The notes: a model not told the origin generated them from the sequence alone. Shown: positions 3,478 to 58,775, numbered from the stretch's first letter. The stretch is DNA of 64,000 nucleotides from an uncultured Candidatus Saccharibacteria bacterium (GCA_964415895.1 CAYQCC010000003.1:3053-67052); one strand, 5' to 3'. Program-made: numbers and translations.

Positions 3478-3720
3478 ACCCCTATAATAGCATTTTTGTC
3501 TTTATTTTTGAAGAAAATTATGATACATTTATATTGCTCAACAAACAAATTTAGTGCATTTCCTGCGAAGGCAGTTTTTGTCGTTGCTCGTCCACGGTAT
3601 TGGCATTCCAATATGAGGAAGATGAGCAATGGCAGAAATGCTTTGTTTGTTGAGCACCTCATTAATTGGGGTGCCAATACTTTGTATTAAGAAGACAAGG
3701 TTTGCACCCATTGCAACCTT

Positions 3721-4368
3721 ATGAAATATATTTATATATTCTTAATCGCAGTATTGGCAAATCTCACTTTTCAAACAAACGCCTTTGCGTATGATTACTA
3801 TTCCGACAACGGAATGAACTACAGCGATGAACAGTTCAAAAGAGATATGAAATCATATATTGATGAACAAATGACCAGACAAGAAAATCAAGAATTACTA
3901 GACCGTATTCGCTCGAAAGGCAATGGTCACACTGATACCGATATTCAGATACTTCAAGAAAAGTTTAACCAACAACAAAAAGACAATCAGATGACATTAG
4001 ACCAAATGAAGCAGATGGTTGATAGTGTAAATGCAGATACGGCTAAATTACTACAAGAAAAAGAAACGTATCAAAATACTCGCACTTTTTGTTTATCATT
4101 AGCAGAAAAATATGCTGTATCTGGAGCTACGAGTGACCTTGTGACAAATTGTAGAAAATACAATGTTGAAATACCGCTAGAGAAAAAAGTTACGACCGTT
4201 GCAGGAAAAGAAAGTGTAAAAGAGGAACCAAGAGAACAAACACTTGATGAAATTCTTGCCAGTCCAAGTAGTTCAACAACGCCTATAGCTCAAGAGGTGT
4301 CACAAAAGCAATCATTCTTTAAGCGTGCAGTTTCTCATATTAAGGGCTGGTTTTCTTGGTTACGTTAA
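3721..4368 (+). CDS. Secreted coiled-coil protein (signal peptide MKYIYIFLIAVLANLTFQTNAFA)
   Basis: N-terminal hydrophobic signal with AFA cleavage-like site; Q/E/K-rich body. Confidence 0.55.
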   Translation: MKYIYIFLIAVLANLTFQTNAFAYDYYSDNGMNYSDEQFKRDMKSYIDEQMTRQENQELLDRIRSKGNGHTDTDIQILQEKFNQQQKDNQMTLDQMKQMVDSVNADTAKLLQEKETYQNTRTFCLSLAEKYAVSGATSDLVTNCRKYNVEIPLEKKVTTVAGKESVKEEPREQTLDEILASPSSSTTPIAQEVSQKQSFFKRAVSHIKGWFSWLR

Positions 4369-4573
4369 GCTACTTTCTGCTCAGTGACCGAATACGATAT
4401 TTGCCCGAATTTGATGGTGTTTTGTTAAAATAAGTAATTGGTACATTTTAAGATGAAAAACCTTATGAAGAGGCAAATAAGTGGCTTCTAGGTGGGTATC
4501 ATATTATAGGCTTACTGTCTAAAACTTATTATACCTGTCTTGGTTAATCTTCCTTATTTTTTTGTACGCATCC

Positions 4574-4597
4574 TGTCTAATCCTGTGGAGTTTTTGG
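4574..4597. repeat. Left boundary repeat 'tgtctaatcctgtggagtttttgg' (related to 12501..12524). Further 'GTCTAATCTT' copies at 4666..4678 and 4699..4710, and a tandem 'CCCTTGGGTT' x3 at 4632..4667
   Basis: Direct sequence comparison: 13-mer gtctaatcttacg identical at 4666..4678 and 12502..12514; flanking ggagtttttg shared. Confidence 0.6.
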
Positions 4598-4740
4598 TAC
4601 TATATTTATATTATCTATTCTTATCTCTTCTACCCTTGGGTTCCCCTTGGATTTCCCTTGGGTCTAGTATCTCTGGTCTAATCTTACGCAAAGTATCTGT
4701 ATTTTCAGGTCTAATCTTGCATAGATTTTATATAGACTTT

Positions 4741-18586: not shown

Positions 18587-19723
18587 TTATATTTCGTAAT
18601 CTATTTTTAATTGCTTAATAAATTTATTATGCGTATTTATATTAACTGCTTGTTTCCATAGCCCAAACCCTTCTTTTACATGAGGGTTATCTAAGTCAAA
18701 GTTTTTTGAAATCTTGCTAATGTCTTTGTGTAATCTTTTTTGCTCATTTTTAAGCCATTCAATAATCTCTTTAATAATACTGTGTTGCTTTAGGAATGCA
18801 TGAACTTTCATCGGTAAGTCCTTATTGACGTACTCTCCTGTATTAGCAGCAGTAACCACTTCATTAAATAGATCAGGGTCTGTATCTTGAGCTATTTTCA
18901 GAAGTTTGTAAGTAGGTTCGGTCATTCGATCAGAAATAATATCTTTCATATAGTCTTCGCCTGCAATCTTTTCAGCAGTTGTTATTTCCTTGTTCGGAAT
19001 CATAAAGTCTGAAGCATTATTTATTGCCTGTAGATGAAGACCGTTCTGATAACATATTTTAAAGATGTTTTCCTTTTTTCCTTTAAATAAATCCTGATTC
19101 TCAGAAGGATCAAATTCTCTGGTTATAATTTCAAAACACATTTGATAAAGAGTTCCATTAGTAAATCCGCCGACACTGTTATCCATCTTCCAGAAATTAT
19201 TCTCGGTCATAGTATTGAAATCTTTGAACCGCGTGAAATTCTCACTTGCATATCCTAGAGCACTATTTGAGAACCAAGTATCGAATATAAACAACTTCGT
19301 ACTGTCTTGTAATGGAAGTTTCAGGATATCGTGATGCATTAAATAGCCTAATGTGATCAAGTCTGACATTCTTTGCTTCGGATCTTTTGTTCCAATATTT
19401 TTATTATCAAGAATCCAGTTATATGTATATGATGACCACATGCATAATTCTATGGCTGCCATAGATGGTAATAGCTCCTTAATTGTAATCTCTTTACCGA
19501 GCAATATCTTGGCAGCAATATAAACCCAATTTGCACGAACATGTCCTTTTTTAACTTTCAATTTCCGCTTTAAAATATAGTCTTCATAAAGCGCTTCGAC
19601 AAAATTGCCTTCGATGATTTTATCGAATACTGGCGTTTCCATTGAATGATAGAAGTCGAGCAAATACTGGTTTAGCTCTGCTCCGATTTCTTCACTTATC
19701 TTGTAATAATCTGGTTGATTCAT
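18587..19723 (-). CDS. Hypothetical protein, 378 aa (possibly alpha-helical terpenoid-synthase-like fold; unverified)
   Basis: ORF track; no definitive motif. Confidence 0.4.
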   Translation of the reverse strand: MNQPDYYKISEEIGAELNQYLLDFYHSMETPVFDKIIEGNFVEALYEDYILKRKLKVKKGHVRANWVYIAAKILLGKEITIKELLPSMAAIELCMWSSYTYNWILDNKNIGTKDPKQRMSDLITLGYLMHHDILKLPLQDSTKLFIFDTWFSNSALGYASENFTRFKDFNTMTENNFWKMDNSVGGFTNGTLYQMCFEIITREFDPSENQDLFKGKKENIFKICYQNGLHLQAINNASDFMIPNKEITTAEKIAGEDYMKDIISDRMTEPTYKLLKIAQDTDPDLFNEVVTAANTGEYVNKDLPMKVHAFLKQHSIIKEIIEWLKNEQKRLHKDISKISKNFDLDNPHVKEGFGLWKQAVNINTHNKFIKQLKIDYEI

Positions 19724-20522: not shown

Positions 20523-21284
20523 TTATTTTTTGAATGACAGCTTACTTTCTTTTAGCGCTTTCCTTAATACTGGAATTGCGCTTGGCCCAATGCCATGGAG
20601 GCTCATCAATTCTTTTTCAGTCCACTTTGATAAATCTTTTAAATTCTTTATCTTTGCATTTTCAAGTGCACGAGTCGCTGGTGCAGAAATCTTTTCAAAC
20701 ACGCTTGTTAGTTTCATTTCTGTGACCTTATAAGCCTTTCCTTTTGAATCATAGGTCGTCCATGTCCCCCTTTGAATTCCTTTGTCAAAAGTTCCTGATC
20801 GCATTTTTGTTCCGTCCTTCCGAAACCATTCCCAGTATCCATCCATTGTTTTACCAGTAAGTTTTCCTTTCGCCCACATACTTCCGTCTGCATGATAATG
20901 TGTGTAATTACCTGAAGGGCTTTTCTTTGGTGCTTTCTTTACAGATTCTTTCAATCTAAATTTTGTTATCTTTCCAATTAGTGCCAAAGGAGGTTGTTTG
21001 TTAACCGGAAAACGAACACAGCCTTTTGACGTTGAATAACCTGAAAGTTCCTTTTCAAATTTCACAATTGCAGACGGTGCTGGATAAAAACCGATGTGAG
21101 TTTTATAGCCAGCAAAGTGTACAAGATTCTCGTCATTCAGCCGAAATGTCGGCATACCATATCGAATTGCTTCCTCTGCACCAGGAATAGCTTTGTTGAT
21201 CGTCATTCGCATAGACTGCAGTGTGACTTGCATATCTTTCGGAAATGATTTGATGTATTGATCGATGGTCTTATAGTCTTTCAT
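20523..21284 (-). CDS. DUF1801(YdhG)-like N-domain fused to MORN-repeat and helix-hairpin-helix C-region; hypothetical
   Basis: MORN-like 'YHADGSMWAKGKL...GYWEWFRKDGTKMRSG'; C-terminal HhH 'LHGIGPSA'. Confidence 0.45.
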   Translation of the reverse strand: MKDYKTIDQYIKSFPKDMQVTLQSMRMTINKAIPGAEEAIRYGMPTFRLNDENLVHFAGYKTHIGFYPAPSAIVKFEKELSGYSTSKGCVRFPVNKQPPLALIGKITKFRLKESVKKAPKKSPSGNYTHYHADGSMWAKGKLTGKTMDGYWEWFRKDGTKMRSGTFDKGIQRGTWTTYDSKGKAYKVTEMKLTSVFEKISAPATRALENAKIKNLKDLSKWTEKELMSLHGIGPSAIPVLRKALKESKLSFKK

Positions 21285-21316: not shown

Positions 21317-22162
21317 TTATTGCTTCTTAATCCAGAAATCCTTACTTAATTTTTTAACAATCTTTTGAGTCTTTTTTGAGTTTTTCGATATAACAATGCG
21401 GTTCTTTCCTCGATTATTAATAATGTCATCGAGTCTTGCAACTGATTCTTTTGTCATGTGAGTATAATTCTTAAAGAATTCTTCTAGTCTATTTGCTGTT
21501 GGAATATCGATATATATTTCAATCAAAATATCACCAAAGATATTTAAATAGTAATTCTTCTTTTTAAATAACGGACGATCAAGATTATTTGCTTGAATAC
21601 CTTCAAGTTTAAGTAGAATCTTTTTTGCCTCTTTATCCAATAATGTATTATTGCCAGCTGTTGCCAAATATTGAACCCCTTTTGTAAAAGCCTTTTTAAT
21701 CTGCCATTCCTCACTATGCGCACGACTCATTAACATAAACCAGTCATGAGGAACATAGGTATATACTTGTGAACCTCTTTTCACGACGTCTAAAAACAAC
21801 CCAAATACGTGTGACCAAAACATTTCGGCTTCCTGAGCCGAGTTAAAGAAGTACTCGATCCGCTCGCTTTCCTGCAAATCCAAGAAAGATTTTTGGGGAG
21901 ATATACCCTTGTTGTTATATTTTGCAACATTCACGTAATCTGCCAAGTCATCCAACCACCGTGAATACAATGTTATTACACCTTTATTAATAGTAATAAC
22001 CCCAGAGTCAGTCAGCTCACGTAATGCCAAATAGACAGCTTGTTTAGTAAAGCTTGTTTTTGATTTCTTAAAATGATCAACCATCTCAAGCGTTTTTATG
22101 GGACCGCTTTTCAGCTCTTTAAGTATTAAATCCTTTAATTTTTTAGGCTTATAGAGCTCCAT
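21317..22162 (-). CDS. wHTH-like 281-aa protein, paralog family member 1 (see 50728..51612 and 53547..54374)
   Basis: Shares N-terminal '...ALREL...', central 'MFW.H' and 'Y.Y.PH.W' blocks and a basic C-terminus with the other two paralogs. Confidence 0.5.
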   Translation of the reverse strand: MELYKPKKLKDLILKELKSGPIKTLEMVDHFKKSKTSFTKQAVYLALRELTDSGVITINKGVITLYSRWLDDLADYVNVAKYNNKGISPQKSFLDLQESERIEYFFNSAQEAEMFWSHVFGLFLDVVKRGSQVYTYVPHDWFMLMSRAHSEEWQIKKAFTKGVQYLATAGNNTLLDKEAKKILLKLEGIQANNLDRPLFKKKNYYLNIFGDILIEIYIDIPTANRLEEFFKNYTHMTKESVARLDDIINNRGKNRIVISKNSKKTQKIVKKLSKDFWIKKQ

Positions 22163-22225
22163 ATAAATAAGTATAGTAAAGTATTACTTTACTGACAAGT
22201 CTTATATTGACATTTTGTTGTAGAT

Positions 22226-23128
22226 GTGTCAATTCCCTGCTATCGTTACGCTATGAGAACATCATTCGACAATGTTTTACGAAAACGACTGATCATTGAA
22301 GCAATTGTTTCGCCTGAGAGTGCGCGCAATTTAAGCAATGTGACTTTTCTTGAAAATTACCTAAGAGACTTAAGCACTCGCGCAAACATGACAATCATGT
22401 TTGGTCCGCTCGTTCACAACTGGGCAGAGCAGCTTGATTATGAAAAATATGCAGGACTGGAAGGTGTGATCATCTGGGCTGAGTCAGGCGTGCAATTATA
22501 TACCTGGGAAAAACATAACGCTCTTACTATTGATATTTATAGCTGCAAGGACTTTTCCATTAACGAGATGGTAGAATTTACAAAAAATTACTTTACTACT
22601 GAAAAAATTGAGTGGAAGGAGGTGGAACCTATCCTAACTCTTGGCTTACCTGAAAACGAACATGTTGAAGTGCGAGATACCCCACATAAAGGAAAAGGCC
22701 TCTTTTTAAAGCATGACGTAAAAAAAGATACAATACTTGCGAGTTTTGACGCTGACATTCATTATGCAAAACGCGCTAGCGAACTTTCACTTCCTGTTCG
22801 AGATCGTGGTATTCAGTGCGGAGAATATTTTTACCGTGACTCTTACCTTATTCAATTTATTAATCATTCTTGTGAACCAAATGCAGGAGTGCATGGATTA
22901 TTTGATATTGTCGCAATGGACAACTTAAAAGCAGGAACTGAAATTAATTTTGATTATGCAATGAGCGAAGATAGCGACTGGGAACTGCCAAATGGAGCTT
23001 GTAAGTGCGGAACCCCAACATGCCGGGGAAAAGTTGGATCTTATAAAAATCTCCCTCTTTCAAAAAAAGCTGAGTATTGGGATTACACTTCTGATTGGCT
23101 GAAAGAAAAATATGGATTTCCAAAATAA
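22226..23128 (+). CDS. Fusion protein: N-terminal pyruvoyl-type S-adenosylmethionine decarboxylase-like domain plus C-terminal SET-domain methyltransferase
   Basis: 'IWAESGVQLYTWEKH' resembles the SpeD/SpeH Glu-Ser self-cleavage motif; SET motifs 'GKGLFL', 'NHSCEPN', post-SET 'CKCGTPTCRGK'. Confidence 0.55.
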   Translation: MSIPCYRYAMRTSFDNVLRKRLIIEAIVSPESARNLSNVTFLENYLRDLSTRANMTIMFGPLVHNWAEQLDYEKYAGLEGVIIWAESGVQLYTWEKHNALTIDIYSCKDFSINEMVEFTKNYFTTEKIEWKEVEPILTLGLPENEHVEVRDTPHKGKGLFLKHDVKKDTILASFDADIHYAKRASELSLPVRDRGIQCGEYFYRDSYLIQFINHSCEPNAGVHGLFDIVAMDNLKAGTEINFDYAMSEDSDWELPNGACKCGTPTCRGKVGSYKNLPLSKKAEYWDYTSDWLKEKYGFPK

Positions 23129-50727: not shown

Positions 50728-51612
50728 TTAAAACAAATCAAACTTTTCACGAAGCTCTCGTGGAATATGAAATTCGGTTGATATCCGCTTGCGAAGCTTT
50801 TTTGCTTTTAATTCATCATATTCTACGGTCATATTTATTGGTCCTGGTTTTAGGAATCTTGGCTTCAAGATATCAAAAAGTTCTTTTTCCGATTGAGATG
50901 TTCCGTATGCAAAATCAAGAACGCGAGAAATAGTTGACGATGTTTTAGTTGTAATAATATAAGGACCAATTATTGAATAATGCTCCCTCCTTGTAAAGGG
51001 GTATTTTTTAGTGAATGAAAAATGTTCAAAACCTGACCGCTCTTTATTACTATTTTTATCAAAAACAGTAACGCCACCTATTAACGTGAAAACGTGCTTT
51101 TCTTTTTCTGAAAAGATTTCTCGGTATTCTTTTTCACTTGAACCTCTTCCAGGAACTAAGTACCAAAAATTATGTGGATTACTGTGGAATACTGGAAAAT
51201 CACCTAATTCATCATGAATATCATTAATAGTATGTTTCCAAAACATATCCATATGGTCTATTTTTGAGAATCGATACACAACTTGTTCTCCTGGAAAAAG
51301 CCTGAATGTTCTTCTGTTTGAAATTGCACTATTTACCTTATTTCTCCAAACATTACTAATTATAAAGCTCTTTCTTTGTTTTGTAACAACATCTCCTTTT
51401 ATCAACTCTCGTAGGTTTTTATATACACCTTCAAGAGTAACACTCTCTTTCAATACTTGTTCGAGGCTTTTCTGTAACTCAATGGCGCTAAGTGGTTTTT
51501 CAATAAGAAGCTCAATAATAACGTCTCGTATTGTTTTTTTGGAAGAGAAGATCATATATATCAGTATATAAAAATACAACTTTTTGTTCAAATTTAATAT
51601 AAAAAGTACCAT
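50728..51612 (-). CDS. wHTH-like ~280-aa protein, paralog family member 2 (likely start MIFSSKK at ~51555)
   Basis: C-terminus 'KKLRKRISTEFHIPRELREKFDLF' nearly identical to paralog 3. Confidence 0.5.
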   Translation of the reverse strand: MVLFILNLNKKLYFYILIYMIFSSKKTIRDVIIELLIEKPLSAIELQKSLEQVLKESVTLEGVYKNLRELIKGDVVTKQRKSFIISNVWRNKVNSAISNRRTFRLFPGEQVVYRFSKIDHMDMFWKHTINDIHDELGDFPVFHSNPHNFWYLVPGRGSSEKEYREIFSEKEKHVFTLIGGVTVFDKNSNKERSGFEHFSFTKKYPFTRREHYSIIGPYIITTKTSSTISRVLDFAYGTSQSEKELFDILKPRFLKPGPINMTVEYDELKAKKLRKRISTEFHIPRELREKFDLF

Positions 51613-51616
51613 TTAA

Positions 51617-52333
51617 ATGAAAAAAGTCAATATCCTTGTTATGCTTCCCTTGTCTATGAAACAAGATTTATCAAAACAATACAACGCTTTTGCTCAAGAC
51701 TTTATTTCCGAGATTAGTCACAGTAATAACATTTCTCGAAATGAGTTTTATAAAAAAATACCAAGAGACCTTACTAGCCTTAAGGTTCTCGATCTAGCAT
51801 GTGGTGATGGGAGTGATATATTTGAATATAAAAAAAGAGGTGCAATCTGTTCTGGTTGCGACTCATCCGAAGAATTAATAAAAGTTGCACGACAAAAAAT
51901 TGGAGATTCTATTGATTTACAAGTACAAGATATGCGCTCTACTTCTTATAATGACCAATCCTTTGATATGGTATTTAGTAAATATGCGATTGGTACTGTT
52001 GATGTTATTTCTGATGTGTATGATGAGGTTTCAAGAATAATCAAGCCAGGCGGATTATTTGTTTTTCTTACAACACACCCTATGCGTCTTTTCCTTGAAA
52101 ATAAAAATGAGACGAAGGATTATTTTATTCAAGAATCTGTCCCTTTAGAATGCTTTAATAGGAAATTTATTATCACCGAACCATCTCACACATTTAATGA
52201 ATTCTTTAGCCGTCAATTCTTCAAGAATTTTGAATTACTGGACTTTACTGAGCATTATGACCCACAATCAGCGTCTTTTAATGGTCGAGATATTTACCCA
52301 GATTTTTTTATTGTGGTAGCTCAAAAAAAATAA
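51617..52333 (+). CDS. Class I SAM-dependent methyltransferase
   Basis: Motif I 'VLDLACGDGSD'. Confidence 0.7.
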   Translation: MKKVNILVMLPLSMKQDLSKQYNAFAQDFISEISHSNNISRNEFYKKIPRDLTSLKVLDLACGDGSDIFEYKKRGAICSGCDSSEELIKVARQKIGDSIDLQVQDMRSTSYNDQSFDMVFSKYAIGTVDVISDVYDEVSRIIKPGGLFVFLTTHPMRLFLENKNETKDYFIQESVPLECFNRKFIITEPSHTFNEFFSRQFFKNFELLDFTEHYDPQSASFNGRDIYPDFFIVVAQKK

Positions 52334-52335
52334 TT

Positions 52336-53001
52336 ATGAAACAAAACCTAACAAAACAATATAATGGAATTGCTAACACATTTAATGTAAGTAATAACAA
52401 TTTCAACCGATTCAGCAACACAGAATTCTTTTCTCACCTCCCAGAAGATTTGAGCGGTAAGAAGCTGTTAGATGTTGGCTGTGGTGATGGAAATGATTTT
52501 GAGGAATATCAAAACAAGGGAGCCGATGTATATGGAACTGACGCTTCGGAAGAATTAATTAACCTTTCAAAATTTAAAGAAAAGATAATATTAGGATCTT
52601 TTGATTCAATACCCTTCGAAAAAGAACATTTCGATGTTGTTGTTAGTAAATACGCTCTGCAAACCTCAGCTGAAATTGACCCTTTTTACAATGAATCGGC
52701 GCGTATTTTAAAACAAAATGGAGAACTTCTTTTTCTAGTAGTTCATCCTATGCGCCAATTTTTTGAGAAAAAAACCCACCATAAAGATTATTTTGATAAA
52801 ACGGTAGTAGATTCCAGTATTTTTAATGGAACCATTACTGTAAAAGAGCCAACACATACAATGCAAGAATATCTCAGTGAAACATTCTTTAATGAATTTA
52901 CTCTTGAATCCATATATGAGGGTTGTGATTTCTATTCTGCTGAAAAAATTGGTTCAAATGACTATCCAACATATCTTATTATTAAAGCTCACAAGAAATA
53001 A
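52336..53001 (+). CDS. Class I SAM-dependent methyltransferase (paralog)
   Basis: 'LLDVGCGDGND'; C-terminal 'YPTYLIIKAHKK' shared with 54442..55152. Confidence 0.7.
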   Translation: MKQNLTKQYNGIANTFNVSNNNFNRFSNTEFFSHLPEDLSGKKLLDVGCGDGNDFEEYQNKGADVYGTDASEELINLSKFKEKIILGSFDSIPFEKEHFDVVVSKYALQTSAEIDPFYNESARILKQNGELLFLVVHPMRQFFEKKTHHKDYFDKTVVDSSIFNGTITVKEPTHTMQEYLSETFFNEFTLESIYEGCDFYSAEKIGSNDYPTYLIIKAHKK

Positions 53002-53003
53002 TT

Positions 53004-53537
53004 ATGAATATTGCAATTATATCTTCCGCAGACGAGAGAACTTCACGTCAATATACCAAACCTACGAAAGATCTTATTTTAAAGCTTGGAAAGTCTTTTT
53101 CAAATCTTAAGATTATAACAGGCGGTTCACTTGGAATTCCAGGGATTGCAGTTAAGCACGCCCAGGCATTAGGCATTGCAACTAAATGTTATTCACCTGA
53201 TAAAAACTCTCGGGCACATGAATTGCGCGACGACAACCTAAAAACTAAATATTTTTCAGAGATAGTTTATATACCTGGATTTACAAATCGTAGCTTACGT
53301 ATGATTAATGATGCTGAGGGTATTATTTTACTCAACGGTCGCATTGGAACACTATCTGAATTCACTATCGCACTGGAAGAGGGTAAGAAAATTGCCGTAC
53401 TCACTGAAACAGGTGGTGTAGCAGATCATTTGGAATATATTTTAGATATAGCTCAAAAAGAATTCCCTGGGCAAACCTTTTTTTCTGACAATATTTCTGA
53501 AATTATTAACTTTTTAAAACAAGAACCTACTGAATAG
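53004..53537 (+). CDS. LOG/SLOG-superfamily Rossmann protein (TIGR00725-like)
   Basis: 'TGGSLGIPGIA' and 'NGRIGTLSEF' correspond to LOG GGGxxGLM and PGGxGTxxE motifs. Confidence 0.6.
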   Translation: MNIAIISSADERTSRQYTKPTKDLILKLGKSFSNLKIITGGSLGIPGIAVKHAQALGIATKCYSPDKNSRAHELRDDNLKTKYFSEIVYIPGFTNRSLRMINDAEGIILLNGRIGTLSEFTIALEEGKKIAVLTETGGVADHLEYILDIAQKEFPGQTFFSDNISEIINFLKQEPTE

Positions 53538-53546
53538 GTTCTTGTT

Positions 53547-54374
53547 TTAAAATAGATTAAATTTTTCCCTTAATTCCTTTGGAATATAAAAATCTTTCGA
53601 TAATTTCTTTCTTAGTTTTTTCGCCTTTTCCTTATTTCTCTCGATAATCAATTTTACTTTTTTCGTCTGGAAATCTATTTTCTGGATGTTTTGTTCTAAT
53701 TCATTAATATTTTTTGCTATTTTATAACATTCTTCTATTTCTTGAACTGTTTTTTTTGAAAGCTGTGTAGTAATAATATATTCATTAAATATCGCTATAT
53801 AGCCAGATTTATCCAGTGGTATACTATCAATATAAATACGAACATATTCGCTTTCAATTATTTTTTTTGTTTCTATTTCTAGTGGTGAATTAGATCCAAC
53901 TAATGAAAATGCAAATTTCTTATCTCGGATAAAGGATTTATAGTATTCAATTTCAGATTTTTTTCGAGATTCTCCTAAATGAATCCATATATAGTGGTAG
54001 TTGTAGAAAAAAATGGGGTCATTAGTATATTTTTCATGTAAAGGAAGTACAATATTTTTCCATTGAATATCGTGGTGATTAAGCGATGAGAGTATATAAA
54101 TATATTGTTCCCCTTCATTAATTTCAAAATCTTTTTCTTGTCCTAACTCTCTAATTACTTGTTGTTGCCATTCTTTATTTAATGAGTACTTAGTCCCTCT
54201 TTTAAAAACTATTTCTTGCTCTAATAAATCTCGTAAAACAACATATAATGCCTGAATCGTATACTTCCCATGCTCTTGTTTGATCTTTGAAAGCATATGT
54301 TTTGCAGTACTTTCAGATATTATTAAGCTTTTCACAATTAAATCCTCAATGTGTGCTTTTTTGGAGAATAACAT
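53547..54374 (-). CDS. wHTH-like 275-aa protein, paralog family member 3
   Basis: See paralogs; C-terminus 'KKLRKKLSKDFYIPKELREKFNLF'. Confidence 0.5.
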   Translation of the reverse strand: MLFSKKAHIEDLIVKSLIISESTAKHMLSKIKQEHGKYTIQALYVVLRDLLEQEIVFKRGTKYSLNKEWQQQVIRELGQEKDFEINEGEQYIYILSSLNHHDIQWKNIVLPLHEKYTNDPIFFYNYHYIWIHLGESRKKSEIEYYKSFIRDKKFAFSLVGSNSPLEIETKKIIESEYVRIYIDSIPLDKSGYIAIFNEYIITTQLSKKTVQEIEECYKIAKNINELEQNIQKIDFQTKKVKLIIERNKEKAKKLRKKLSKDFYIPKELREKFNLF

Positions 54375-54441
54375 AGCTTTATAATATCATATTTTTAAAA
54401 TAATTTTTTAAAAATATATCATAAAACAACATTATTTTGAT

Positions 54442-55152
54442 ATGTCAATTATTTTCAGGTATAGTTACTTTGCTATGAAAAAAATAACTAACCAATATAA
54501 TAATTTTTCTGAAACATACTCAAAAAATGTTAATTATGACAAAAAAAGCAATGTTGCCTTTTATCAACATATTGATTTTAACCTTACTAATAAAAAATTA
54601 TTAGACATAGGTTGTGGTGATGGTGTGGATTTATATAAATTTCAAAAATTAGGTGCTGTTGTGTATGGAATTGATCCAAGTAAAGAATTTATCGATATAT
54701 CAAAGAAAAATAACCCAACTGGAATATTAAAACAAGGCATGGCGGAATTAATACCCTTTAATAATGAAACATTTGATGTTGTAGTATCTAAATGGGCACT
54801 ACAAACATGTTCTGATCTTCCAAAAGTATTATATGAAGTAGGTCGAGTACTAAAAAAGAATGGATTATTTGTATTACTTTCTAAGCATCCCTGGATGCAG
54901 TGGATGGAAAAAAATAGGGATTATGGCAATGGTGTAGATTATTATGAACAAAAAATTGTAACTTCTAATATTTATGAGGGAAAAATTGTTTTAAAAGAAC
55001 CAACACATACAATTAATGACTATTTGAATTCTGAATTTTTAAACCAATTTGAAATAATGTCTTATGAAGAAAATACTGATTTTCCTGCAAGCGAACAAAT
55101 TGATGGGAAAATTTATCCTACCTATTTTATAATTAAGGCTCGTAAAAAATAA
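54442..55152 (+). CDS. Class I SAM-dependent methyltransferase (paralog)
   Basis: 'LLDIGCGDGVD'; 'YPTYFIIKARKK'. Confidence 0.7.
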   Translation: MSIIFRYSYFAMKKITNQYNNFSETYSKNVNYDKKSNVAFYQHIDFNLTNKKLLDIGCGDGVDLYKFQKLGAVVYGIDPSKEFIDISKKNNPTGILKQGMAELIPFNNETFDVVVSKWALQTCSDLPKVLYEVGRVLKKNGLFVLLSKHPWMQWMEKNRDYGNGVDYYEQKIVTSNIYEGKIVLKEPTHTINDYLNSEFLNQFEIMSYEENTDFPASEQIDGKIYPTYFIIKARKK

Positions 55153-55154
55153 TT

Positions 55155-55703
55155 ATGAAAATAGCCATCTTTAGTTCGTGGTTACCAGAGATTACTCAGG
55201 AAAATAGAGACCTTATAGTTAAGATAAGTGAATACTTATGCAGTAAAAATATAACCGTTGTTACGGGTGGTTGCAGCGGAATACCGGCGCTCGCGATAGA
55301 AACTGCGTTTAACCTAAAAAATAAAACAATGGGTTACTTCCCATTAAAAGATCAGCAAGATTATTTTGATCGACAGCACGAGAAAAATATTCACTGTATT
55401 GATTTTTATTCAACTGCTCATTTTGTTGCAGGGTTTACCGCGCGAAGTCTTGAAATGATTAAAAATGTCGACGCAGCCATAGTTTTAAATGGTCGTATTG
55501 GAACACTATCTGAATTCGGCATTGCAATCGAAGAAGGCTTACCCCTTGCTGTCATCGAAGGAACGGGTGGAGTTAGTAATGAACTGCGCACTATCGTGAC
55601 TGTCGCGCAAAAGGAACTTCCAAATAATGAAGTTATTTTTGAAAAGAATTATAAAAAAGCAATTGATAAATTAATCGAAAACTACAATCTAAAAACCGCT
55701 TAG
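55155..55703 (+). CDS. LOG/SLOG-superfamily Rossmann protein (paralog of 53004..53537)
   Basis: 'TGGCSGIPALA', 'NGRIGTLSEFGIAIEEG'. Confidence 0.6.
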   Translation: MKIAIFSSWLPEITQENRDLIVKISEYLCSKNITVVTGGCSGIPALAIETAFNLKNKTMGYFPLKDQQDYFDRQHEKNIHCIDFYSTAHFVAGFTARSLEMIKNVDAAIVLNGRIGTLSEFGIAIEEGLPLAVIEGTGGVSNELRTIVTVAQKELPNNEVIFEKNYKKAIDKLIENYNLKTA

Positions 55704-55994: not shown

Positions 55995-57104
55995 TTAGTT
56001 TCGATTTAATGGCATGATCAGATACAAGAATGTATTATCATGCTGTCCGCGTACAATTAATGGTTTTTTAGGGTCTAACCATTCAAAGAACAATGAATCA
56101 CTTTGAATAATATTAATTCCTTCTTGGATTTGCTGAGCAGATAATCCAACCTCGATTGAATTTCCCTCGATCACCGCATCAAGCGTCGTATGAATTTCAC
56201 CAACACTTGTGTTCTCGGCGTGAAACAAAACTGTTTTATCTTCCGCACTCACTGTCATGGTGATGTGGTGGTAGTGGTTTGAAAAGAGGGGAATGGTTTT
56301 TAATAGATGAACCAGGTCGTTTCGCAGGATAATTACTTGAGTTGTGTGGGTTGTTGGAATAATTTTTGTATAGTCTGGAAAATTTCCATGGGTCAGCTGC
56401 GCAGTAATAAAGATATTTTGTGTTTGTAGGTAGATCTGATGATCGTTTACTGAAAGTATTACGTCCTCGTCTGAGTCTGCTAGAATTTTGATAATATCCT
56501 GAGCATTTTTAATTGGGAGTAGGAACGACCCAATGGATTCTGCGTTTATAAAGGCAATTTTCTTTTCTGCGAGGCGAAACGCGTCAGTGGCTACAAAATA
56601 AAGATTATTCTCCTTGCCAGTAATGTAAATACTTGATAATTCTGGCTTAATATCACTGTTTGATCCAGCGAATAACACTGACTTCATGCCTGATAGTAAG
56701 TCTGATACAGGAAGTGTTATCTGCGTGTCACCATCAACCTTTTTAGGAAGTTCTGGAAAATCGTCTACCGGGAAAGTTTTAAGCTTACTTTTTGATTTTT
56801 TGGTCTTGATATGAAAAATATCACCTTCTGTTTCGCATGTAATAGTTTCTTGGTGAGGAATACCAGAAAGAACTTGTGAGAAGTAGCTTCCAGGTAGAGC
56901 ACATACACCAGGTTCGTCGACTTTTGCTGAAATAGTTATTTCTGCACCCGTGTGTAAGTTGGTAGATCTAAATACTACCTTTCCATCAGTTGTTGCAGTA
57001 CATAAGATGCATGACAGCACTGGAAGTGTTGGATGCTTTCCTGTCACCTTTTCAGTTTTTGTGATTGCAGAGAATATTTTCTCATGAGAGCATTCGAATT
57101 TCAT
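55995..57104 (-). CDS. dnaN: DNA polymerase III beta sliding clamp
   Basis: 369 aa; three-domain clamp pattern; directly downstream of dnaA. Confidence 0.85.
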   Translation of the reverse strand: MKFECSHEKIFSAITKTEKVTGKHPTLPVLSCILCTATTDGKVVFRSTNLHTGAEITISAKVDEPGVCALPGSYFSQVLSGIPHQETITCETEGDIFHIKTKKSKSKLKTFPVDDFPELPKKVDGDTQITLPVSDLLSGMKSVLFAGSNSDIKPELSSIYITGKENNLYFVATDAFRLAEKKIAFINAESIGSFLLPIKNAQDIIKILADSDEDVILSVNDHQIYLQTQNIFITAQLTHGNFPDYTKIIPTTHTTQVIILRNDLVHLLKTIPLFSNHYHHITMTVSAEDKTVLFHAENTSVGEIHTTLDAVIEGNSIEVGLSAQQIQEGINIIQSDSLFFEWLDPKKPLIVRGQHDNTFLYLIMPLNRN

Positions 57105-57386: not shown

Positions 57387-58775
57387 TTATGTTTGCAACA
57401 TGGCACGAATTTGTTCGATATCATGAATTAAGTTTGGACTCTCTGTTAGTTCGCGTGTAATCTTTTCATATGAGTGCATTACGGTTGTATGATCGCGTCC
57501 TCCTAATTTCTTTCCTATATGAGGGAATGAGATACTGTAATCTTCTCGTAAAATATACATAGCCACCTGGCGTGCCTCAACAATTTCTTTTCTACGATTC
57601 TTTTCATACATAGATGCTTCTTCAAGGTTATAAAAATGTGCCACTACCTTTACAATATCTTCCAATGAAATATTTCGTTTTGGTTTAATATTATTTTTAA
57701 TAAGAAGTTTTATTTCTTGAATATTTAATTCTCTTTTCCGTAATTCCATCTGCATAATAAGGGTGTTAATAATACCCTCTAATTCGCGAATATTACCCTC
57801 TACATGGCTCGCAATGTAATCAATTGACTCTTCGGTTAGTTGGAAATTATGAGCCTTTAATTTTGATTGTAGGATCGCACTACGAGATTCATATTCTGGA
57901 CGAGCCATATCAACAGTCATTCCGGCAGAAAATCTTGATTTTAAACGATCTTCTAGGCCTACAATATAGTTTGGGTGCTTATCAGAAGAGAATATTAACT
58001 GACGGTTCCTATCATGAAGTGTGTTAAATAAATGGAATAATTCTTCTTGAACCTTCTCTTTTCCTGCTGAGAAAAATTGAATATCATCCATAATTAATAC
58101 ATCACAAGTTCTATATTTCTCTTTAAATTGGTTTATACGGTTTGTTTGAAGTGATGAGACATAATCCATCAGGAATTTTTCAGAACTTGTATAAAAGACG
58201 TTCAAGTTTGGATTACTTGCAACCATTGCGTTCCCTACTGCTTGAACAAGGTGAGTTTTTCCAATTCCTGTTGACCCGTAAATAAATAATGGATTAAATG
58301 ACCCAGGTTTTTTAATAACAGCCTGAGCCGCAGAATACGCAACTTCATTAAATGATCCAATAATAAATGTTTCGAATGTATATTTTGGATTTAGATTATT
58401 TTTTCTTGGTACTGAATGGTCAAGTGGTAATTCTTGCATAATCTCCTTCTCCATCTTTTCTTGTTCTGTGGCAATTGGCGCAGTAACCACCTTTGTTGGT
58501 TTTTTTGCAATAATAAATTCAACTGACCTAATATTTTCTCGATGACTGCGGATAGATTTTAATACTTCGCGACTAAATTTTGTCGCAAGCCAGTCCTTAA
58601 TAAACTCATTAGGTACGCCCACAAAAAAAACGCCGTCCTCCTCGCGCACTGCGTGAGTATTTTTGAACCACGTTGTAAAATTGGCCTTTGAAACGGACAA
58701 TTCTATTTCAGCGAGTACGGTTTCCCAAAGGTTTGTGACATCCTGCATACACGTTAAAAGAGAGTTACTGAGCAC
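57387..58775 (-). CDS. dnaA: Chromosomal replication initiator DnaA
   Basis: Walker A 'GSTGIGKTHL', sensor and box VII regions, C-terminal DNA-binding 'HTTVMHSYEKI'. Confidence 0.9.
   Translation of the reverse strand: MLSNSLLTCMQDVTNLWETVLAEIELSVSKANFTTWFKNTHAVREEDGVFFVGVPNEFIKDWLATKFSREVLKSIRSHRENIRSVEFIIAKKPTKVVTAPIATEQEKMEKEIMQELPLDHSVPRKNNLNPKYTFETFIIGSFNEVAYSAAQAVIKKPGSFNPLFIYGSTGIGKTHLVQAVGNAMVASNPNLNVFYTSSEKFLMDYVSSLQTNRINQFKEKYRTCDVLIMDDIQFFSAGKEKVQEELFHLFNTLHDRNRQLIFSSDKHPNYIVGLEDRLKSRFSAGMTVDMARPEYESRSAILQSKLKAHNFQLTEESIDYIASHVEGNIRELEGIINTLIMQMELRKRELNIQEIKLLIKNNIKPKRNISLEDIVKVVAHFYNLEEASMYEKNRRKEIVEARQVAMYILREDYSISFPHIGKKLGGRDHTTVMHSYEKITRELTESPNLIHDIEQIRAMLQT

Follow-up and report, generated by a model that had tools for sequence, protein, structure and literature searches.

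A divergent gene pair in a Candidatus Saccharibacteria genome encodes a rare AdoMetDC-like–SET fusion and a putative winged-helix regulator with a candidate palindromic operator

We analysed a 64,000-nucleotide stretch of DNA from an uncultured Candidatus Saccharibacteria bacterium (GCA_964415895.1, CAYQCC010000003.1:3053-67052; the whole stretch is henceforth referred to as ‘the window’, with positions counted from its first letter) and describe here a divergent two-gene module within it. One gene (22253-23128, + strand; identified as an open reading frame (ORF) and by Pfam) encodes a protein of 291 amino acids plus stop in which a domain like S-adenosylmethionine decarboxylase (AdoMetDC) is joined to a SET methyltransferase domain (henceforth referred to as ‘the fusion’). 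The other gene (21317-22162, − strand; identified as an ORF) encodes a 281-amino-acid protein that, in its structure model, begins with a winged helix-turn-helix and ends with an alpha/beta domain of phospholipase D (PLD)/Nuc-like fold (henceforth referred to as ‘the partner’). The reading that we favour, with a confidence just short of even, is that this module pairs a ligand-sensing-type regulator with a bifunctional enzyme, a decarboxylase and S-adenosylmethionine (SAM)-dependent methyltransferase in one, that acts on a small metabolite. The locus brings together an AdoMet_dc-like::SET fusion that is rare in bacteria, a so far uncharacterised group within the AdoMetDC superfamily in which Tyr stands in place of His, and a large family of putative regulators, as yet without a name, whose candidate operator is legible in silico.

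A rare AdoMetDC-like–SET fusion in a single reading frame

The fusion lies within an ORF of 300 amino acids (22226-23128, + strand) that includes IWAESGVQLYTWEKH, NHSCEPN and CKCGTPTC. Translation most likely starts at ATG 22253 (291 amino acids) and not at GTG 22226 (300 amino acids), because the ortholog at locus L008 has a TAG stop codon aligned to GTG 22226; a length of 291 amino acids was also reported by one gene caller. Searched with the 300-amino-acid ORF, Pfam returned AdoMet_dc (PF02675) at residues 33-133 (E 1.3e-14, 54.8 bits, cut-off 25) and SET (PF00856) at residues 156-244 (E 3.2e-7, 31.2 bits, cut-off 22.4), so that the fusion of an AdoMetDC-like to a SET domain proposed in a preliminary description of the window is borne out by domain search and, as detailed below, by fold. 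The fusion is real, since it recurs as a single ORF in independent assemblies at 100, 82-83, 68, 43 and 36-37% identity.

This architecture is very rare. In a search of 5.8 billion protein clusters both domains occurred together in only five (P0001-P0005), and further fusions from later look-ups (L009:1785-2624, P0108/P0365 and P0364) bring the total to about eight clusters at 90% identity. The fusion was not found in a pattern-plus-tblastn scan of 185,579 species genomes, one genome per species, a set of representatives that does not include the window’s own genome, and a literature search found no paper on a bacterial AdoMetDC-SET fusion. The earlier statement that this is not a standard architecture holds for prokaryotes, but the domain combination is not entirely without precedent, as two reviews report diatom fusions of AdoMetDC, an aminopropyltransferase and a histone N-methyltransferase domain (PMC3820600, PMC12029483).

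Compared with the ortholog at locus L002, the proportion of nonsynonymous differences (pN) is 0.10 in the N-terminal domain and 0.11 in the SET domain against a saturated proportion of synonymous differences (pS) of ~0.7, and by this measure both halves are under strong and equal purifying selection. The N-terminal domains of three fusion lineages are 55-59% identical (48-49% for the P0005 type) to stand-alone proteins versus 39-43% to each other; unlike the N-terminal domains, the SET domains of these lineages are among each other’s best matches.

The N-terminal domain belongs to a Tyr-for-His clade of the AdoMetDC superfamily

The N-terminal domain (residues 1-128; 22253-22636, + strand) was assigned to the AdoMetDC (PF02675) fold by Pfam, an AlphaFold2 model and Foldseek, and to a Tyr-for-His clade by its invariant residues. 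The model of the fusion was built from a 75-sequence alignment and has a predicted local distance difference test (pLDDT) score of 88-98 across residues 11-120; its top Foldseek match in the PDB is Thermotoga maritima AdoMetDC (1tmi, 1vr7 and 1tlu; target-normalised template modelling (TM) score 0.79-0.81, root mean square deviation 2.0-2.6 Å, 118-120 columns). The fold on which the earlier proposal depended is thus present in the predicted structure, with a TM score of ~0.80 to the T. maritima enzyme.

A hidden Markov model alignment to 1tlu relates the residues of the fusion to those of T. maritima AdoMetDC. The predicted self-cleavage and pyruvoyl-forming site, Glu77-Ser78 (22481-22486, + strand), corresponds to E62-S63, with WAE77-S78G of the fusion aligned with SE62-S63H; Cys98 (22544-22546, + strand) corresponds to the catalytic Cys83, and E16 to E11. 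Three positions differ: Tyr83 (22499-22501, + strand) stands at the position of His68, G79 at that of H64 and E86 at that of P71. The Glu-Ser site is conserved in the clade, with Ser in 120/120 and Glu in 118/120 members, as are Tyr83 (120/120 members) and Cys98 (119/119 sequences), and the full set of invariant or near-invariant residues over 120 sequences comprises R10, R12, E16, P52, W75, E77, S78, G79, Y83, W85, D94 and C98. The position of Glu86, which is the Pro of the HTWPE motif in AdoMetDC, is variable within the clade.

A profile search with the N-terminal domains recovered 183 proteins, almost all of them stand-alone and 118-135 amino acids long, and the named relatives come from Woesearchaeota, Nanoarchaeota and Bathyarchaeia. 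Judged from these sequences, the Tyr-type signature defines a clade that spans DPANN archaea, Bathyarchaeia and Candidate Phyla Radiation (CPR) bacteria and includes more than 100 stand-alone proteins. Because the closest relatives (55-59% identity) are stand-alone proteins of 120-135 amino acids, the domain is predicted to function on its own in these relatives; and because S78, Y83, W85, C98, R10 and R12 are invariant over 120 clade members, it gives the impression of a functional active site and not of a degenerate one. Overall, the conservation pattern identifies the N-terminal domain as a member of a distinct, strongly constrained clade of the AdoMetDC/SpeD superfamily, of which a literature search found no description.

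By published diagnostic residues the domain is predicted not to be a bona fide AdoMetDC, because His68 is replaced by Tyr, Pro71 is absent and the score falls under the cut-off of the NCBIfam AdoMetDC equivalog TIGR03330 (35.6 bits for the fusion, cut-off 75.65). In T. maritima AdoMetDC, S63, H68 and C83 are essential for processing and catalysis, and bona fide AdoMetDCs carry the Pro of the HTWPE motif without exception (PMC10407285). The domain shares Pfam family and fold with SpeD class 1b and with the arginine decarboxylase SpeDA and the ornithine decarboxylase SpeDC (PMC10407285), and resembles them in the Glu-Ser site, the Cys83 equivalent, a length of ~120 residues and the frequent occurrence of homologs in CPR bacteria and DPANN archaea. 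Unlike bona fide AdoMetDC, it lacks the diagnostic Pro, has Gly in place of the His after Ser, carries two invariant N-terminal Arg residues and is fused to a SET domain. The Tyr-type branch, which replaces a His described as essential and adds two invariant Arg residues, falls outside the recent survey of SpeD neofunctionalisation, and should have either a different processing mechanism or a new substrate. No aminopropyltransferase is found among the genes annotated around the locus in the 64-kb window.

The SET domain and the genomic context of decarboxylase and SET genes

The SET domain is best known as the fold of histone methyltransferases, and little is understood of what it does in bacteria. 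In the fusion, the SET domain, the post-SET cysteines and a C-terminal helical tail occupy residues 138-291 (22664-23125, + strand; delimited by Pfam SET and motifs). The motifs are KGKG (146-149), NHSCEPN (residues 204-210; 22862-22882, + strand, read from the translation), FDY with Tyr235, and the post-SET cysteines C250-x-C252-x4-C257. Across six fusions K146-G147-x-G149, N204-H205-S206-C207-x-P209-N210, Y235, C250, C252 and C257 are invariant, and an S-D-W-x-x-P motif is both invariant and specific to the fusions. The SET methyltransferase with NHSCEPN and CxCxxxxC claimed from the first inspection of the sequence is thus confirmed by the Pfam match, by the strings themselves and by the invariant columns.

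Among the matches of a phmmer search against PDB sequences were ASH1L (4.4e-7), MLL1 (2e-6), NSD1 and BurB (9l4t; 2.3e-5), while Foldseek with the SET domain placed NSD1, MLL1 and ASH1L at E ~1e-8, with SETD2 also among the nearest solved relatives. Searched alone against PDB sequences, the C-terminal segment matched ASH1L (0.009) and BurB (0.11). BurB, a bacterial SET enzyme of 172 amino acids, catalyses the S-methylation of free methionine, a reaction that is followed in its pathway by a decarboxylation (PMC12542666). The fusion resembles BurB/MSMT of this dimethylsulfoniopropionate (DMSP) methylation pathway (PMC12542666) in having a small bacterial SET domain, for which BurB is a precedent of a free small-molecule acceptor. 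It differs in showing no specific sequence affinity to BurB, in that the decarboxylases BurI/SMMDC are separate proteins and in that the remaining pathway is not near the fusion gene. A BurB-specific affinity was ruled out, as histone methyltransferases score better in two PDB searches, and no DMSP-type cluster was found at the Streptomyces SET loci (L042). The stand-alone SET genes that come closest (40-44% identity) belong to an unclassified bacterium, Saccharibacteria and Jorgensenbacteria.

Gene order elsewhere gives the fusion a modest amine or polyamine context. The closest stand-alone relative of the N-terminal domain, P0098 (56% identity), directly follows a lysA-like pyridoxal phosphate (PLP)-dependent decarboxylase gene. 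In the Bdellovibrionales metagenome-assembled genome CAYHND010000045 (L032:2853-4969), a saccharopine-dehydrogenase-like gene (389 amino acids), a SpeD homolog and a SET gene stand in a row; this SpeD homolog is of the canonical type (130 amino acids, ESHISVHTFPK, TIGR03330 78.6 bits) and the 164-amino-acid SET gene begins 19 nt downstream. The run looks like an operon and is an unfused counterpart of decarboxylase plus SET in a polyamine-type setting. A general adjacency of SET and SpeD genes was ruled out, as the two are adjacent at 1/80 genome loci.

In diatoms, AdoMetDC, aminopropyltransferase and histone N-methyltransferase domains are reported to be fused, and these proteins are proposed to make and N-methylate long-chain polyamines (Michael 2011, FEBS Lett 585:2627, as cited in PMC3820600 and PMC12029483). 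They share with our fusion an AdoMetDC-type and a histone-type N-methyltransferase domain in one polypeptide and a logic of making an amine and then N-methylating it. They differ, as described there, in being eukaryotic, in their aminopropyltransferase domain and in an AdoMetDC part described as a real producer of decarboxylated SAM (dcSAM); their function is itself predicted, and the methyltransferase is named there only as histone-type. In the 291-amino-acid fusion Pfam and NCBIfam detected only AdoMet_dc and SET, and no aminopropyltransferase domain.

Three arrangements around stand-alone clade members were also noted. The P0098 gene is last in a run at L185:2584-5393 that comprises a gene for a 383-amino-acid protein, the lysA-like PLP decarboxylase gene (408 amino acids, 8-nt overlap with the gene upstream) and P0098 itself. 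On the DPANN-type contig L177 (3854-5981) a Tyr-type AdoMet_dc-like gene lies between genes for an MnmA-like tRNA thiolase and a nitroreductase, with TYW3 and translation factor genes nearby. At L014 the stand-alone member P0107 overlaps a CxxCxxCC (PF03692) gene by 4 nt and lies near a TrmB-family regulator gene (237 amino acids) that is divergent to a class I methyltransferase gene (L014:1584-3149, 3706-4598), a layout the same as that of the cassettes near the replication origin of the window described below, with a regulator of another family.

The partner is most likely a regulator with a palindromic operator

TrmB and PadR families are ligand-responsive winged-helix regulators that bind palindromic operators beside divergent target genes. 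The partner itself has no Pfam or NCBIfam match. Its AlphaFold2 model (pLDDT 75.6) contains a winged helix at residues 9-65 (helices 9-17, 24-33 and 40-52; strands 56-59 and 62-65), and Foldseek with this model returned PadR (E 2e-4), YodB and Rv0047c on the one hand and NucT, Nuc and Zucchini (E 2.6e-4 to 1.3e-3) on the other, among them NucT 6ehi (E 2.6e-4, target-normalised TM score 0.57) and Nuc 1byr (0.54). The winged-helix-like character first ascribed to the protein is thus supported by the model and by PadR-type structural matches. A PLD/Nuc (HKD) phosphodiesterase was rejected, since the catalytic HxK(x)4D motif is missing; the His is kept in N-P-H-x-W-F, with Trp at the position of the Lys.

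The partner belongs to a large family: among 1.84 billion representatives, a profile search picked out 1,718 relatives at E≤1e-3, nearly all of 270-290 amino acids and, judged by the sources of their loci, largely from groundwater and sediment metagenomes. None of the 56 members tested reaches a Pfam threshold. The 56-member profile gave only weak, FUR-type winged-helix matches against PDB sequences, and the weak profile matches of the family are TrmB, FUR and PadR. Assignment to the TrmB family (PF01978) was not supported, as the window protein does not match it and only 4/56 members do, under the threshold and at a best E of 0.0049, and a literature search did not bear out a PLD-like middle domain for TrmB; assignment to any known family was rejected, with no Pfam or NCBIfam match and only the weak FUR-type profile matches in the PDB. 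In layout the partner resembles TrmB/PadR-type regulators: it has an N-terminal winged helix, a C-terminal domain that is not DNA-binding and a palindrome in the divergent intergenic region that overlaps a promoter-like site. It differs from them in scoring under threshold for all Pfam and NCBIfam models and in a C-terminal domain that resembles PLD/Nuc nucleases without HKD.

That palindrome, AGTAAAGTA-T-TACTTTACT (22175-22193, on neither strand in particular), is intergenic and a perfect 9+9 bp repeat with the core AGTAAA-N7-TTTACT, and is the putative operator of the partner. It is the sole perfect AGTAAA-N7-TTTACT site in the window. At L002 it is the same apart from the central base, at L008 the outer hexamers are kept, and at L009, whose partner has 47% identity, the sequence ACTAAAC-N5-GTTTAGT shows matching substitutions in both half-sites. 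The intergenic DNA of the window and of L002 is nearly identical despite saturated synonymous sites.

The site also recurs across the family. For a family-wide test, 80 metagenome loci (L097-L176) were fetched with alignment A7, which represents a different subfamily of the partner protein. In 50/80 of these loci there is a single exact copy of GTAAA-N7-TTTAC, just 5' of the partner-family gene, against 0/80 SET control loci, and inverted repeats of at least 7 bp are present in 51/63 distinct upstream regions versus 14.5 in shuffles. Both the primary sequence of the site and its 7-nt spacing are conserved across proteins that are 25-45% identical. In 51/56 distinct cases the upstream neighbour of the partner-family gene is on the opposite strand, and the downstream neighbours are split 29:29. 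Because the palindromic operator is conserved across the family and upstream neighbours are mostly divergent, the partner is most likely a regulator that binds a palindromic site next to its own gene.

Around the palindrome in the window we found promoter-like sequences for both genes. The promoter-like site of the partner gene (22170-22198, − strand) consists of a −35 element TTGTCA (22198-22193) and a −10 element TATACT (22175-22170) with a 17-nt spacer that is filled by the palindrome; it is the best match in the region (10/12), as a match to the consensus only. Towards the fusion gene, the palindrome lies 14 nt from a TTGACA hexamer that faces this gene and belongs to its conserved non-coding leader (22207-22252, + strand; from the alignment with L002 and L008), which contains TTGACA (22208-22213), the inverted repeat ATTGACA-N14-TGTCAAT and the block GTCAATTCCCTGCTAT (22229-22244). 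The block is conserved 5' of the fusion ATG in orthologs down to 68% protein identity, and is taken as non-coding because a TAG closes the frame in L008 while the DNA block stays conserved. A related inverted repeat is present at L002, and the inverted repeat spanning TTGACA could serve as a further regulatory element or as an atypical promoter.

To our knowledge, almost nothing is known of transcription control in CPR bacteria, and the partner family offers a large unnamed group of putative regulators in these bacteria with an operator that can be read from sequence. Electrophoretic mobility shift assays and regulon prediction are thereby directly possible.

The pairing of partner and fusion is conserved, whereas the link of the wider partner family to SAM enzymes is not general. 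The partner lies upstream of the fusion in every ortholog with readable context (L001, L002, L008, L009 and L010), down to a partner identity of 47%, so that the gene pair is indeed kept in other genomes; fusions of the P0005 type, the most divergent lineage, do not have the partner immediately upstream and show an apparent tRNA gene there instead. Within the window the partner has two paralogs (50728-51612 and 53547-54374, both − strand) of ~24% identity over the full length (BLASTP 1e-12 and 4e-8; phmmer 7e-13 and 7e-15), 1.6-6 kb away from dnaN (55995-57104) and dnaA (57387-58775), and each is transcribed away from a class I methyltransferase gene (51617-52333 and 54442-55152). The grouping of the three proteins in one family, and their common divergent arrangement with a gene for a SAM-type enzyme, therefore agree with the preliminary description. 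The pairing with a SAM enzyme, from which it drew a functional coupling, holds for the three window paralogs and for the fusion orthologs with readable context, but it is not a rule of the family: among the divergent neighbours at 56 distinct loci of the other subfamily, 17 belong to a small protein family of no known function, 14 are NAD-binding Rossmann proteins of ~265 amino acids, 3 are AdoMet_dc-like (WVTSG variant) and the rest are assorted others. Because the divergent neighbours in this subfamily are mostly not SAM enzymes, the recurring element appears to be the regulator with its operator and not a specific coupling to SAM chemistry, with AdoMet_dc-like neighbours that do recur. The small proteins are 85-163 amino acids long as called (e.g. 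L139:3487-3846), the Rossmann proteins are NAD_binding_10-like (e.g. L102:2343-3107), and the AdoMet_dc-like neighbours (L100:3524-3892, L128 and L129) have Thr-Ser in place of Glu-Ser.

Proposed function of the module and alternative explanations

In the mechanism that we propose, a dimer of the partner would bind AGTAAA-N7-TTTACT, and its C-terminal PLD/Nuc-like domain, which lacks the HKD motif, probably binds a ligand. Because the site occupies the spacer of the promoter-like element in front of the partner gene and lies shortly 5' of the fusion promoter region, the partner would both autoregulate and control the enzyme gene. The N-terminal domain of the fusion would self-cleave at Glu77-Ser78 into a 77-residue beta chain and a pyruvoyl-headed alpha chain bearing the SET domain, in which the SAM-binding and catalytic motifs are all intact. 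The two domains would then act in sequence on a small metabolite: one would decarboxylate an amino acid or sulfonium amino acid and the other would use SAM to methylate the amine or sulfur, either of the product or of the precursor, so that a methylated compound of (poly)amine type would result. Our best guess is thus that the fusion catalyses a two-step decarboxylation and SAM-dependent methylation of a small amine. A bacterial SET domain fused to a pyruvoyl decarboxylase-type domain, taken with the example of BurB, suggests that bacterial SET enzymes act on small molecules, and the fusion provides a concrete protein with which this can be tested. In its fullest form the proposal would be a self-contained decarboxylate-and-methylate enzyme whose product is a methylated polyamine or else a sulfonium amine, for instance DMSP-amine, built from a Tyr-type pyruvoyl branch and a small-molecule SET domain and switched by a new ligand-sensing winged-helix family with the operator AGTAAA-N7-TTTACT across hundreds of CPR-type genomes; this extended version we regard as doubtful.

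Several observations weigh against this reading of the module. On the side of the enzyme, self-processing is not assured, because the His68 that is essential in T. maritima is replaced by Tyr; by sequence as by structure, the SET domain matches histone lysine methyltransferases best, and it is no closer to BurB (E 2e-5) than to these; and the geometry between the two domains is uncertain in the AlphaFold2 model of the fusion (predicted TM score 0.55). No polyamine genes lie beside stand-alone clade members in the DPANN contigs examined, where the neighbours are genes for translation and tRNA modification, or in L013, L014 and L016, and only L185 has the lysA-like decarboxylase gene. An adjacent SpeD homolog occurs at 1/80 SET loci (L032), with two more within ~3.5 kb. 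On the side of the regulator, the partner model carries no more than moderate confidence (pLDDT 75.6), the resemblance to PLD proteins is weak (Foldseek E ~1e-4; TM score 0.54-0.57 target-normalised, 0.33-0.35 query-normalised), and no TrmB structure is found in the top 50 Foldseek PDB matches. The AGTAAA-N7-TTTACT site is absent from the two paralogous modules of the window.

In the main rival reading, the fusion methylates lysines of proteins, for example of a nucleoid, ribosomal or host protein, and the AdoMetDC-like domain has no decarboxylase role but is an accessory, for instance in SAM or S-adenosylhomocysteine sensing, oligomerisation or targeting. We consider this possible, as each of the nearest solved relatives of the SET domain is a histone lysine methyltransferase, the NHSCxPN, Tyr and post-SET motifs of the domain are typical of such enzymes and the canonical decarboxylase His68 is missing from the N-terminal domain. 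It accounts less well for the invariance of Glu-Ser, Cys98, Tyr83 and Arg10/Arg12 over 120 sequences, mostly stand-alone proteins of 118-135 amino acids, which argues for an autonomous catalytic function; moreover, the N-terminal domain evolves no faster than the SET domain, and a regulator with a ligand-type domain suits a metabolic gene better.

Conversely, the N-terminal domain could be a genuine AdoMetDC that makes dcSAM despite the His-to-Tyr change, with a SET domain that is unrelated or loosely coupled and a fusion that does no more than express two SAM consumers together. This view fits the Pfam AdoMet_dc match and the fold, the retained equivalents of Ser63, Cys83 and Glu11 and the annotation of clade members as AdoMetDC in their sources. 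We nevertheless judge it improbable, in view of the absence of the completely conserved Pro, the replacement of His68 and a score well under the equivalog cut-off, and no spermidine synthase gene lies beside any clade member examined.

A narrower version of small-molecule chemistry, in which the SET domain S-methylates methionine to S-methylmethionine as BurB/MSMT do and the AdoMetDC-like domain converts this to DMSP-amine, appears quite unlikely. Its appeal lies in BurB as a 172-amino-acid SET enzyme acting on free Met ahead of a decarboxylase step (PMC12542666), in the presence of BurB among the PDB sequence matches (E 2.3e-5) and in the native decarboxylation of a sulfonium amino acid by AdoMetDC. 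The similarity to BurB is, however, no more than that of the shared SET fold, with better scores for histone methyltransferases, and neither an aminotransferase nor an aldehyde dehydrogenase gene that could serve the later steps lies in the neighbourhood.

Methylation of DNA-binding proteins by prokaryotic SET enzymes is known, and the gene pair is kept in four ortholog lineages; the partner might accordingly be methylated by the SET domain or be a subunit of the enzyme, instead of acting as a transcriptional regulator. We give this very little weight, since at most other loci partner-family genes with the same operator are paired divergently with unrelated genes, which identifies the DNA site and not a SET enzyme as the conserved partner of the family protein, and the most divergent fusions lack the partner immediately upstream. 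Of the two roles, ‘regulator or substrate’, first suggested for the partner, the regulator is thus supported by the operator conserved across its family and the substrate is not favoured. Equally slight is the prospect that the palindrome is an RNA element, such as a 5' untranslated region hairpin of the partner mRNA: the compensatory changes at L009 would also keep base pairing and the palindrome lies 13-45 nt 5' of start codons, but the hairpin is weak and no better than shuffles (−7 kcal/mol, z −1.18), the primary sequence and spacing of the site are themselves conserved across distant family members, and the gene downstream encodes a winged-helix protein.

Other genes of the window

The TyrRS and DNA polymerase I encoded in the window share 90%-identity clusters with proteins named ‘Candidatus Paceibacterota bacterium’, which puts the genome within the CPR/Patescibacteria. 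Two further genes adjoin the module and neither is kept beside it in L002. One (18587-19723, − strand) encodes a 378-amino-acid protein without a Pfam match that is conserved in the near-identical contig L001; the other (20523-21284, − strand) encodes a DUF1801 protein with a weak C-terminal match to the RNA polymerase alpha C-terminal domain (helix-hairpin-helix).

A defence system was considered for the module and rejected: PADLOC returned no match for the partner or the fusion, and the methyltransferases near the replication origin match its generic mad2 model only (~1e-17), which is a generic methyltransferase model. These methyltransferases belong to two paralogous modules that form tandem cassettes (50728-55703) beside dnaN and dnaA. 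Module 1 (50728-53537, mixed strands) comprises a partner paralog (50728-51555/51612, − strand), two class I methyltransferase genes (51617-52333 and 52336-53001, + strand) and a gene for an SLOG/LDcluster4 protein (53004-53537, + strand). Module 2 (53547-55703, mixed strands) comprises a partner paralog (53547-54374, − strand), a class I methyltransferase gene (54442-55152, + strand) and a gene for an SLOG/LDcluster4 protein (55155-55703, + strand) with a weak match to ThsA STALD, and carries a 12+12 bp AT-rich palindrome at 54389-54417 that is different in sequence from the site at 22175.

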